A DNA stretch of 33,630 nucleotides, from IMG/VR virus record IMGVR_UViG_2534681675_000029, positions 1 to 33,630 of that record. The stretch is one strand, 5' to 3'. Position numbers: made by a program. Source of the DNA: a virus (taxonomy: Duplodnaviria; Heunggongvirae; Uroviricota; Caudoviricetes). Positions 3,001 through 6,000 of the stretch are shown piece by piece (positions within the stretch are counted from its first letter, which is position 1; every line of letters begins with the position of its first letter).

Positions 3001-6000
3001 GGACAGGTCTTCATCCTGACATGTCAGTTCGCCAATATTAATGGTGGCCATGATATCTGTTTCCCCTGTACGCTCATCCTCGACTTCTTCATAAGGCAGC
3101 GTTGCGTACAGGCTTTCAATAGCGCAACTGATAACATCGAGTCCGGTCAGGTTGCCACCGACAGTAACTTCGAATGTTTCGCGGTATTCCCATAGCCCGA
3201 AAGTTAATCGAACGGTTTGTTTTGCCATGCGTCCGCACAACGTCAGATTCGGGTCATAGTTCATTATTTGCGGTTGAGTATTCTGGGTATTCATCTGCTT
3301 TTTCCTTAGTCCGGCGTTCTGCCGGGCATATAAGTTATTTAACCTGGATAAATGGTGTATTAGCACCGCTGGTCATGTATTGCGGCAGTGTGCCGTTCCA
3401 TTTATTGATGGCTTCCAGTTCCATAACTTCGGGGTTCTGGCGCAGAGCTTCACCGCGTAAACGAATAGCATCGGCTTCAGCCTGGGCTTTTGTGCGAATT
3501 GCATCAGCCTGTCCGGCAGCTTCCGCGCGCAACATGTTGGCTTCCGCTTCGCGCTGTTTAACTTCCTGCTCGCGCTGCAGTGTTTTCTGGTTCGCCGTGA
3601 CTTTGGCATTAATGCTGTCGATAACGGTTGACGGGTACTCCGGCTTACCCACATATGAGAGGCTCATTACCTGAATACCGATAGGTGTCATCTCTGCCTG
3701 AATGTCTTTAAGAGCTTCATCCAGCAGCTTAGACTTGCCGCCGTCGATAAATTTGTCAGTGGTCATTTTGCTGGCCAGTCGGTTGAGTGCATCGGCGATC
3801 TTCTGGCGCAGGTCAGTGTCGGTAATGTCGTCCACGCCTTTGCGGTAGGTCTGAAACACCGTGGTAACTTTGGATGGATCAACTTTGTAGGCCACGCCGA
3901 TGTGATAGCCGATGGTTGTACCGTCACTCATCTGGAAACTGAACGGTTCATCGTAGGTCTTCATTTGCTTGAAGGTGGGGAAGATGTAAACTTCAGTATT
4001 CCAGCCAGTCCAGTAGCGACCAACACCTACCACCTCACCGACGCCTTTGTCGTCGCCCAGTTTATTTACCTTGATGCCAACATTACCTGGTTCAACGCGA
4101 TCGCAACCGACAAGGCCAATAGTCGGCAGAATAATGGCTAAAGCAAAAATAATTTTTTTCATCTTTTATCCTTAGTGAAAGAAAGACCCTTGTAAATGGC
4201 ATAAATGCAGGGCGGGGTCAGAAACGCCAGTGCAAAGCCAGAAATAACTGCTATCGTATCCTTCATGGATATAAGGAACGGAACAAGTAATCCGTAAATG
4301 CATGCGATAATTGCCAGTAAAATTACTATTGTGAAATACAGTCTCATTGGTCTGTGGTATCCCGATATTTTTAACCGACTGACAGCGCAATAAAGAGAAT
4401 AATGATTTCTGTTAGTGTCAGCACTGTGGCAAGGATTAAAATCAGTTTTACTCTGTTTAATTCACGGTTGCTTTTCATATGAACGGTTAGTAAAAAACGG
4501 AAGAATTATTTTCTTCTTAATATTTAATGTGTCACTGGCGCTTCTGGCATACCATGAGTATTTAGGTCGTTAATCATTTCATCCAGAAGAAGTTCAAGCC
4601 CTTCTCGTCCCATAGCAGATACAATGAAGCCATTATCAGGATCTGCGATGAGCATTTTTTGATAGAGAAACAGAACTCGCCCCATGCCTTCAGCTTCGCC
4701 ATATTTTTCAATGAATCCCCATTCGACATGGTTTTGCAGGGCAATGCGAAGTGGCCCTGGGTATATACTCATGCAACCATGCTTCCCCTTATAAATAACT
4801 GCGCGATCTGTAGTTCCGTTATCGTTAGGGATATCAATGGTGCCGTTCTTGTCTTCCTCTTCACTGATAAATTTCGCCACATACAGCCAGCGCCACTGGG
4901 CAACCTTCAGATCGACTGAAAATCTTCCCAGCAATCCGGCATCATCAGCTTCGGCAAGACATTGCATGATTCTTAAACCGTGCCAGTATGGATTATCGAA
5001 TTCACCATCATTAAGTTGCTGTACGGCCTCAACATAATCAATGGTTGTATTGCCAATTTTTATGCCATGTGGCGTAACTTCTGGTTGGAACTCTGAATAA
5101 TTCATAATGTTTGTTCCTTTGCTGGTGGAATAATCGTGTAACCCGCTCTTTTTACCATCCACAGAAATGTATCCATGCAGCCAACGAATTCATCATCCGA
5201 CAGATGTTTTGAGTAAATCACTTTCCCATTTTCAATGGTCAACAACACTCTTACTTTTTCATGTGTTATGTTCTGTTGTTTTTCTTTCATTTATTTATCT
5301 CCCATATGCTTTGCGCAAATACAGGTTGGCTATATGAAGATAAGAATCTCCATGTTGTGCAATGAGGCAGGCAGTTTTATACGATGCCTTATTTTTCAGG
5401 AAAGTCATAACTGAGTTACCTCTATGAATAAAGGTTGCAACAATCTCCGGCGATAAAACCGTAATAAACGGTCATGGCATATTTGTTGTTATTGCGCTAA
5501 TTCTTTTTCGGCAGCAGCTTTTGCATATTCACACGCAAAATTCAGAATTTCGCTGCCAAGTACTTTTGTTTCGTGATTACTGGACATATGTAATACCTGT
5601 GTTGCATGTAATAAATGATAAACATTTACCGCAAATGAGTCCGGCTCCAGACAAATGCCTTCATAATCATCTTGTTGTGAGGTTGTTTCTGTCATTGCTC
5701 CTGAAGTGCATGCGAGCCTGTTTTTGACAATTCTCTTTCCTCTAATCACTATATCGGCAACATCTATTGCCTTTACAACCTCCGGGAGAAGTTCCGGGTT
5801 TGTATAATCAAAGTCATCAACATGGAGAACAGTTATGTTTTCGAACTTTTTCATGGCTTCCTCAGCTGACTTATATGTTCTGCTATATAGCGAGTCTCAG
5901 AAGTGTTTTCATATTGAGACTGTTTCCGCAATGATTGATAAAAATGTTCGCATGTACCTTGAGGGGCGAAGCGGCGATTATGTCACCATTGGTATTGGTT

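Follow-up and report, generated by a model that had tools for sequence, protein, structure and literature searches.

What does a phage gain from a lipoprotein with an SPFH domain whose translation is tied to that of a tiny membrane protein? SPFH scaffolds such as HflK/C, prohibitin, stomatin and flotillin form membrane cages, the clients and purposes of which are debated. The question was raised by a window of 33,630 nucleotides (nt), the whole stretch of DNA analysed here (positions 1 to 33,630 of IMG/VR record IMGVR_UViG_2534681675_000029, a virus of the Caudoviricetes), in which a reading of the sequence alone (the original prediction) had placed a three-gene operon at 3335-4478, consisting of an SPFH lipoprotein with a long coiled coil, a 62-residue two-helix membrane protein coupled to it by an ATGA overlap, and a 35-residue hydrophobic peptide, and had proposed a role in superinfection exclusion or abortive infection. 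Our answer is that the hairpin-SPFH pair is deeply conserved as a two-gene phage module and occurs as a single fused gene in some lineages. As for its role, we give about an even chance (probability roughly 0.5) to an HflK/C-like periplasmic cage on the inner membrane with a hairpin adaptor, serving general early takeover or maintenance of the host membrane in lytic development. The parts of the module are as follows.

Positions 4159..4347, minus strand: helical-hairpin membrane protein of 62 residues, assigned from PHROG 1130 and an AlphaFold2 (AF2) model.
Positions 4159-4162, minus strand: ATGA overlap of the hairpin stop and the SPFH start, the last hairpin codons being AAG GAT AAA AGA TGA.
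Positions 3335..4162, minus strand: SPFH/Band-7 lipoprotein gene encoding 275 residues, with the stop TAA at 3335-3337, annotated by the Prokaryotic Genome Annotation Pipeline (PGAP) as 'SPFH domain-containing protein' (WP_000720004.1).
Positions 4103..4162, minus strand: signal peptide and lipobox L-V-G-C, read from the translation, with the Cys20 codon at 4103-4105.
Positions 3539..4099, minus strand: SPFH alpha/beta domain, residues 22-208 (Pfam envelope; AF2 strands 19-94 and helices 96-161).
Positions 3437..3631, minus strand: long Ala/Glu-rich helix, residues 178-242 (AF2 helix).

Conservation of the pair was surveyed at 316 viral loci from four IMG/VR scans, and the SPFH proteins, clustered at 80% identity, fell into 29 clusters that share 26-100% identity with the window protein. 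In about 25 of the 29 clusters, an open reading frame (ORF) of 49-116 residues with one to three predicted transmembrane (TM) segments ends at most a few bases from the SPFH start, the usual overlap being 4, 8 or 11 nt. The proteobacterial hairpins have a common loop, P-x-[LM]-[IV]-S-x-x-[DN]-[ST], and the crAss-like hairpins have a common motif of their own, M-[IL]-[ST]-[AS]-x-N-T-[IV]-E-N. A small membrane gene abuts or overlaps the SPFH start in P88 (P2-like, gp11/gp12), the phage-plasmid Cyrano and N4 (gp19/gp20), and the same arrangement was found in a Burkholderia prophage, a Pseudomonas phage, Rhizobium LG08 and the crAss-like cr85_1. In Enterobacter-type lambdoid prophages, the pair occupies the site that it has here, between the repressor and xis/int. 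The P1-like RCS47 also has a hairpin gene, unannotated, at about 3290-3500, upstream of its SPFH 'lipoprotein'. The RCS47 pair lies between upl/plp and the tRNA/dnaB(ban) block, in what looks like a variable accessory slot, at which P1 itself presumably carries tciABC.

Fusion of the two genes was surveyed by a HMMER scan of 1.84 billion representatives (at the 50%-identity level), which returned 231 proteins at E <= 1e-30, and 142 full-length sequences were obtained among the best 150 taken. At least 16 of the 142 are in-frame hairpin-SPFH fusions, in which a hairpin with P-x-L-[IV]-S stands ahead of the lipobox and SPFH part, and the same motif is present in only 1 of 94 unfused N-termini. 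Such fusions explain the roughly 80 extra N-terminal positions of the PHROG 200 profile. One further sequence, P0003 (347 residues, eight member sequences, on a 94-kb P1-like contig), is an in-frame fusion of a P1-type hairpin to SPFH, reading REKTRKLINEK followed directly by TLISAAIIFGSLCLTGCDRVEPG; it apparently arose by a frameshift within the run of A residues where the two genes overlap, and could be either a sequencing artefact or a tolerated natural fusion. The pairing of the SPFH protein with a small membrane partner, as first proposed, is thus borne out by its conservation in distant phages and by the gene fusions. Since adjacency is conserved and in-frame fusions occur, the hairpin protein is best read as an obligate or dedicated partner of the SPFH gene, although some lineages lack an adjacent membrane ORF.

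The 62-residue protein has PHROG 1130 'membrane protein' as its only family match (2.5e-23), and no Pfam domain was found in 112 clusters homologous to it. Its AF2 model consists of only two helices, 2-26 and 31-58 (mean confidence score pLDDT 84). Among 32 homologues, P23 is invariant and S27 and P45 are at least 90% conserved, and the loop motif VP-x-L-I-S-x-K-D-T has the conserved form P-x-L-[IV]-S-x-x-D-[ST]. Lys and Arg residues average 1.3 at the N-terminus, 0.8 in the net-neutral loop and 3.9 at the C-terminus of the hairpin homologues; this enrichment at both termini predicts, by the positive-inside rule, that both ends are cytoplasmic (N-in/C-in) and that the conserved loop faces the periplasm. 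The fusions fit the predicted topology, as the cytoplasmic C-terminus of the hairpin would lead through the signal or TM segment to the periplasmic SPFH part. Among phiP27-like relatives, the hairpin gene has a ratio of non-synonymous to synonymous polymorphism (pN/pS) of 0.23, which indicates purifying selection. An AAGGA Shine-Dalgarno sequence lies inside the hairpin gene, 8 nt upstream of the SPFH ATG, and the arrangement points to translational coupling of the SPFH gene to the hairpin gene. Both the two-helix membrane protein and the ATGA coupling of the original prediction were therefore recovered, from the sequence and from the AF2 hairpin.

The SPFH protein matches Pfam Band_7 (PF01145) over residues 22-208 with an E-value of 1.1e-30 (107.4 bits against a cut-off of 23.6) and PHROG 200 'lipoprotein' with 2e-113. 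Its AF2 model (pLDDT 73.7, from a 22-sequence alignment) comprises an SPFH alpha/beta domain, one 65-residue helix and a low-confidence C-terminus, and the alignment of homologues reveals a conserved C-terminal motif, EAINKWNGTLP...PF, with K254, W255, G257, P260, P270 and F271 invariant. In a Foldseek search of the PDB, the whole chain of the model aligned with cage-forming subunits (probability 1.00, E 1e-13 to 1e-7), the top match being HflK (7vhq_E, 3.5e-13), and further matches being erlin1/2, prohibitin, HflK/C-FtsH, stomatin, flotillin and QmcA (from QmcA-YbbJ). Judged from the model, helix 178-242 is the probable equivalent of the wall-forming coiled coil of SPFH cages. The sole solved relative found by sequence is likewise HflK (7vhq, 6e-4 in a PDB profile search), and the scores against the NCBI equivalog models lie below their cut-offs, at 23.6 bits vs 159.4 for HflK (TIGR01933, 3e-05) and 25 bits vs 134.4 for HflC (TIGR01932, 7.5e-06). 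The SPFH lipoprotein with its long coiled-coil helix, as originally described, is confirmed by the Pfam match, the lipobox LVGC, the modelled helix and the SPFH fold. Older family annotations as 'putative serine protease' and 'transposase fusion protein' were considered and rejected, as no protease or transposase domain was found in the Pfam search.

The N-terminus of the SPFH protein, MKKIIFALAIILPTIGLVGC followed by DRVEPG, contains a canonical lipobox (TIGLVGC, then DRV) with Asp at +2, the criterion being [LVI][ASTVI][GAS]C, with Asp +2 taken as the Lol-avoidance signal in E. coli. According to the +2 rule, Asp at this position is the inner-membrane retention signal of E. coli, and from the lipobox and Asp +2 together the protein is predicted to be lipidated at Cys20 and retained in the inner membrane, with its mature part in the periplasm. 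The proteins of P88, Cyrano, RCS47 and the Burkholderia phage likewise have Asp at +2; that of N4 has Tyr there, with Asp next. Conservation of the lipobox Cys extends over the 29 viral SPFH clusters and, among the 142 distant full-length representatives, over at least 96. Since some distant members have a TM helix in place of the lipobox, the family switches between lipid and TM anchoring with the periplasmic orientation kept. Three such representatives, P0285, P0296 and P0297, lack the lipobox Cys, and in them the conserved V-E/P-x-G-x-V-G motif follows immediately on an ordinary N-terminal TM helix.

From these properties, the following mechanism can be proposed. The 62-residue protein would insert in the inner membrane as an N-in/C-in hairpin, presenting its short conserved loop toward the periplasm, while the SPFH lipoprotein, made in step with it, would be exported, lipidated at Cys20 and kept in the inner membrane by Asp +2. 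The SPFH domain, the long helix and the C-terminal motif would then lie in the periplasm, which is the side, and would reproduce the overall architecture, of HflK/C; prohibitin and erlin, like HflK/C, also face the non-cytoplasmic side. To our knowledge, every solved full-length SPFH protein is an oligomeric ring- or dome-type assembly, and by this analogy the phage protein most probably forms a ring or dome around a patch of inner membrane. In it, the hairpin would serve as a membrane-embedded adaptor or co-anchor, a part comparable to that of the TM helices of HflK/C or the TM portion of NfeD, or possibly be the enclosed client. Such an assembly could partition or stabilise the inner membrane, or sequester inner-membrane clients, during lytic development, a general lytic-phase role being suggested by the presence of the same pair among the early or middle genes of many virulent phages.

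Among characterised systems, HflK/HflC is the best match, with which the module shares the SPFH domain, the long helix, the C-terminal cap region and, by prediction, a bulk placed in the periplasm. However, the phage protein has a predicted lipid anchor instead of an N-terminal TM helix, is encoded by a single gene rather than a K/C heteropair, has a dedicated 62-residue hairpin partner, and is phage-borne.

The SPFH family is widely distributed. By tblastn, it was matched in 646 of 50,697 phage records, whose hosts include Staphylococcus (156), Pseudomonas (76), Erwinia (48), Klebsiella (45) and Escherichia (40), as well as Bacillus (33), Burkholderia (30), Caulobacter (26), Halorubrum (25) and Salmonella (24). 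Virulent groups that carry it include N4 and other Schitoviridae, Vequintavirinae, Ounavirinae, crAss-like phages, Kayvirus and Lak phages, and it is also found in haloviruses. The gene is present in 689 of 5426 complete E. coli genomes and in 613 plasmids, 594 of which are non-mobilizable and 90-120 kb in size, comprising P1-like and SSU5/pMT1-like phage-plasmids, Yersinia pestis plasmids included. On two Y. pestis plasmids of about 100 kb (H180 and H181), pMT1-like to judge from their size, the SPFH protein is about 80% identical to the window protein, and this homologue explains the old note on N4 gp20, 'similar to Yersinia pestis protein'. At the DNA level, only the mature SPFH core (window 3368-4114) is common to the window, P88 and P1-like phages, with 85-91% identity, while the signal peptide and hairpin gene (4115-4347) are unrelated to their P88 and P1-like counterparts. 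As the SPFH core is conserved between lineages while the hairpin and signal peptide differ strongly, the module is itself a recombination mosaic.

The third member of the proposed operon fared differently, and it is described here as follows.

Positions 4371..4478, minus strand: hydrophobic ORF of 35 residues, peptide MKSNRELNRVKLILILATVLTLTEIIILFIALSVG, of uncertain status, a possible small membrane peptide or leader ORF.

An ORF of 35 codons is not beyond chance, since 43 ORFs of at least 25 residues occur in 3 kb. It is open in all 50 close loci carrying it (22 haplotypes; one locus has an ATA start), the chance of which is, by a rough estimate, about 0.95^24 or roughly 0.3, and its pN/pS of 0.52, compared with 1.23 and 0.86 in the off-frames, is a weak coding signal. 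No Shine-Dalgarno sequence lies within 15 nt of its start, no family match was found in Pfam, PHROG, PADLOC and NCBIfam searches, and PGAP did not annotate it. The exact peptide is absent from a collection of 15 billion proteins, in which the exact 62-residue protein is found on about 1000 contigs. Homology to the window ends at position 4338 in 29 of 80 close relatives, in which the upstream region with the 35-residue ORF is replaced by unrelated genes while the pair is retained; moreover, the ORF is missing in the distant contexts examined (P88, Cyrano, N4 and Enterobacter prophages). The ORF thus exists as described and is hydrophobic, but the evidence for its being a gene is weak; it is lineage-restricted and not part of the conserved module, and it was dropped as third operon member. 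Of the gene triad whose co-occurrence in other prophages had been proposed as a check, the hairpin and SPFH genes recur together and the 35-residue ORF does not.

A sequence identical to the window is found in E. coli MFDS1022581 (NZ_CP169399.1), and phage phiP27 is 97% identical to it over this stretch. According to the PGAP annotation, the prophage is of the Shiga toxin (Stx) 2g, phiP27-like type, and the following landmarks place the module.

Positions 1154-2326: int (PGAP).
Positions 2281-2490: xis (PGAP).
Positions 6677-7366: cI-like XRE/S24 repressor (PGAP).
Positions 7500-7799: cro-like gene, divergent (PGAP).
Positions 17758-18999: stx2g, A and B subunits.
Lysis cassette: holin at position 19569, lysozyme, and lysis protein at 21893-22360 (PGAP).

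After xis, the order is the DUF4222 and DUF5406 genes, the SPFH gene, the 62-residue gene, three small genes, a helix-turn-helix protein and the repressor. Because the module is flanked by the cI-like repressor on one side and by xis/int (1154-2490) on the other, the label 'early-left accessory region' of the original prediction is correct. The DUF5406 gene (PF17400, 1.3e-21) starts at 3294 in the PGAP annotation, leaving a gap of 40 nt to the SPFH gene; the 147-residue GTG-start version of this ORF first read from the sequence (2923-3366) would run into the 3' end of the SPFH gene. Next to the pair in the other phages compared, DUF5406 is not conserved. A moron, an accessory prophage cassette with independent expression, would be flanked by its own promoter and terminator. 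A consensus scan for a promoter of the module's own returned 6 promoter-like sites against 8.2 expected by chance, a kind of scan that a real promoter could escape, and the candidate at 4535-4508 is weak. Upstream of the 35-residue ORF, a GAAGAA-AAUAA-UUCUUC hairpin followed by U6 resembles a terminator by eye; it was rejected, as its folding energy (-4.3 kcal/mol, z 0.1) is no better than that of shuffled sequences. No cII- or cIII-like gene is annotated in the prophage. Many of the late genes at 20882-31918, including lysozyme, both terminase subunits, portal, S49 peptidase, major capsid, FI and a head-tail joining protein, are flagged by PGAP as frameshifted, which reflects either decay of the prophage or homopolymer errors in the assembled sequence.

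Several observations weigh against a cage built by two cooperating proteins. The structural-alignment identity of the SPFH protein to HflK/C is 17-18%. Erwinia Roscha1 and one crAss cluster have no membrane ORF adjacent to the SPFH gene, and in KpS8-type phages a soluble ORF of 54 residues separates the two genes. The phylogeny of the hairpin also disagrees with that of the SPFH protein; the P88 SPFH protein is 92% identical to that of the window and its hairpin 23%, and in KpS8 the corresponding values are 53% and 39%. This discordance implies that any contact rests on a few conserved loop residues, or that the two proteins act side by side unbound. Judged from its position, mid-operon and downstream of the repressor-controlled region, and with no promoter or terminator of its own detected, the module would be expected to be silent in the lysogen and expressed once the prophage is induced or a cell is infected. 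Lastly, the literature searched contains genome notes only, and no functional experiment on any family member was found in it.

Superinfection exclusion, as originally proposed, would mean that a periplasmic SPFH assembly with its hairpin blocks the entry of a secondary phage genome at the inner membrane, in the lysogen or early in lytic growth. Small inner-membrane proteins and lipoproteins are classic factors of this kind (Imm, Llp, Cor, Ltp), T4 Imm and Sp acting in early lytic exclusion and Imm being a small two-TM protein; like the module, T4 Imm, T5 Llp, Cor and Ltp are phage-encoded, envelope-located and early or accessory, yet none has an SPFH domain or any sequence or fold relationship to it. 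The accessory position and the mobility between unrelated temperate elements, seen in the shared core of P88 and P1-like phages and in the many plasmids, also favour exclusion, as does N4 gp18 (L006 1907-2221), which lies directly upstream of gp19/gp20 and matches PF17420, 'Superinfection exclusion gene product 17', of the P22 gp17 type (1.5e-56). This gp17-type gene beside the pair is suggestive in N4 and was not seen in other lineages. Nevertheless, none of the three ORFs and of the two genes beside them matched PADLOC-DB 2.0 at E <= 0.1, no paper was found that ties SPFH proteins to exclusion or defence, and a discrete cage would cover only a small fraction of the membrane. The hosts range from Bacteroides to Staphylococcus and haloarchaea, a span that a generic membrane function fits better than a receptor- or injection-specific block. 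For the lysogen in particular, the module stands within the early-left operon and lacks a promoter or terminator signal above chance. With the pair present in strictly virulent phages in addition, a prophage role in superinfection exclusion or abortive infection could not be upheld; exclusion during lytic growth is possible but unsupported, and we regard exclusion as a whole as unlikely. We regard as somewhat less likely that the phage protein joins, replaces or competes with host HflK/C around FtsH and so alters substrate degradation, including that of lysis-lysogeny regulators. HflK and HflC are its nearest curated and solved relatives, by the HflC and HflK profiles, 7vhq and Foldseek alike, the predicted periplasmic orientation is the same, and HflKC modulates the action of FtsH on lambda CII (Kihara 1997, as cited in PMC13086221), a point that has been raised for phages (PMC8540360). 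Against this mimicry, the scores are far under the equivalog cut-offs, the structural identity is low, the module is present in virulent phages without a lysogeny decision and in haloarchaeal viruses, and the prophage has no annotated cII- or cIII-like gene.

A cage might also protect the inner membrane from depolarising or perforating abortive-infection effectors, or from premature holin damage, and thereby secure the latent period. This accords with the early-gene position in both temperate and virulent phages, with the ties of cellular SPFH proteins to membrane stress (YdjI with PspA in B. subtilis, PMC8581546) and of HflKC to tolerance of aminoglycosides and oxidative stress (PMC10434171), and with the location of the Kayvirus homologue MbpS in the lysis-gene region (PMC7150955). 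It is purely inferential, however; no co-occurrence with known anti-defence genes was seen, and the periplasmic side is the opposite face from most cytoplasmic effectors, so that counter-defence is given a still smaller share than mimicry. That the locus is a canonical SPFH-NfeD operon, or a three-component operon including the 35-residue peptide, is very improbable. In QmcA-YbbJ, YqiK-YqiJ and FloA-NfeD, a small membrane protein gene also lies immediately upstream of the SPFH gene and is co-translated with it, and the 35-residue ORF, as noted, stays open in its 22 haplotypes with a reduced pN/pS. However, the phage partner has two TM helices and a loop without an OB-fold NfeD or ClpP-like domain, and its SPFH protein is predicted to be periplasmic, whereas canonical E. 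coli partners pair with a cytoplasm-facing SPFH protein such as QmcA, which forms with YbbJ, a true NfeD, a cytoplasm-facing cage of 26 heterodimers; NfeD is proposed to promote SPFH oligomerisation (PMC13086221, citing Tan 2024). The 62-residue protein has no PF01957 match at E <= 0.1 and is too short for TM helices plus an OB fold, so NfeD identity was rejected and the NfeD analogy fails as family membership; a three-component operon is countered by a peptide ORF that lacks a Shine-Dalgarno sequence, was never called as a gene, and is replaced in close relatives and absent from distant loci. A spanin-like lysis pair, that is, an inner-membrane protein with a lipoprotein bearing a periplasmic coiled coil, is superficially similar in its overlapping genes and its membrane protein beside a long-helix lipoprotein. 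This reading is effectively refuted by the SPFH fold, by Asp +2, which sorts to the inner and not the outer membrane, by a TM protein without a periplasmic domain, by the early-left site about 15 kb from the lysis cassette, and by the phiP27 spanins, which are catalogued separately and have only 62 periplasmic residues (PMC6139136). Ordered by the roles they assign, we would rank generic membrane takeover or maintenance ahead of lytic-phase superinfection exclusion, then HflK/C mimicry on FtsH, and then membrane counter-defence.

Phage SPFH genes had been annotated before, as PHROG 200, N4 gp20, Kayvirus MbpS and phiP27 L05 'putative serine protease', all of the same family as the window protein. 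Genome papers note the gene and call its role unclear (PMC13239085, PMC8540360, PMC7150955), an involvement of Kayvirus MbpS in Sec-dependent export of a lytic enzyme has been speculated (PMC7150955), and obligately lytic Pseudomonas phages encode an SPFH gene, which is therefore no marker of temperance (PMC8540360). The reports treat the SPFH gene alone, and no description of the hairpin partner (PHROG 1130), the loop motif, the fusions or the Asp +2 signal was found in the literature searched. What was already known is thus the gene family by annotation, and what is new is a defined hairpin-SPFH unit, predicted to be lipid-anchored and periplasm-facing and sometimes fused, in very different phages. 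Because the pair recurs in hundreds of phages, strictly lytic ones included, the module looks like a general tool with which phages reorganise the inner membrane of the host, rather than a prophage defence gene.

In this way, vague labels such as 'lipoprotein' and 'serine protease' give way to a defined and testable unit with a hairpin partner, a conserved loop predicted to be periplasmic, fusions and a predicted inner-membrane lipid anchor, which is present in tractable models, namely N4 (gp19/gp20), P1-like and phiP27-like phages. As a minimal two-component SPFH system, of 62 and 255 residues, it is an attractive model for the nucleation and contents of SPFH cages. The role of the module may also bear on the biology of Stx-prophage induction and on envelope-level conflicts, be they between phages or between phage and defence. 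More tentatively, as a view that we hold to be doubtful though a little less so than exclusion, the phage-built periplasmic SPFH cage and its hairpin adaptor might create a membrane micro-compartment that insulates the inner membrane of the infected cell, for instance by keeping out DNA injected by competing phages or by neutralising host suicide effectors that attack the membrane. If this were true, the pair would represent a widespread and previously unrecognised class of conflict module acting at the envelope, common to temperate and virulent phages of hosts from Proteobacteria to Bacteroidota.

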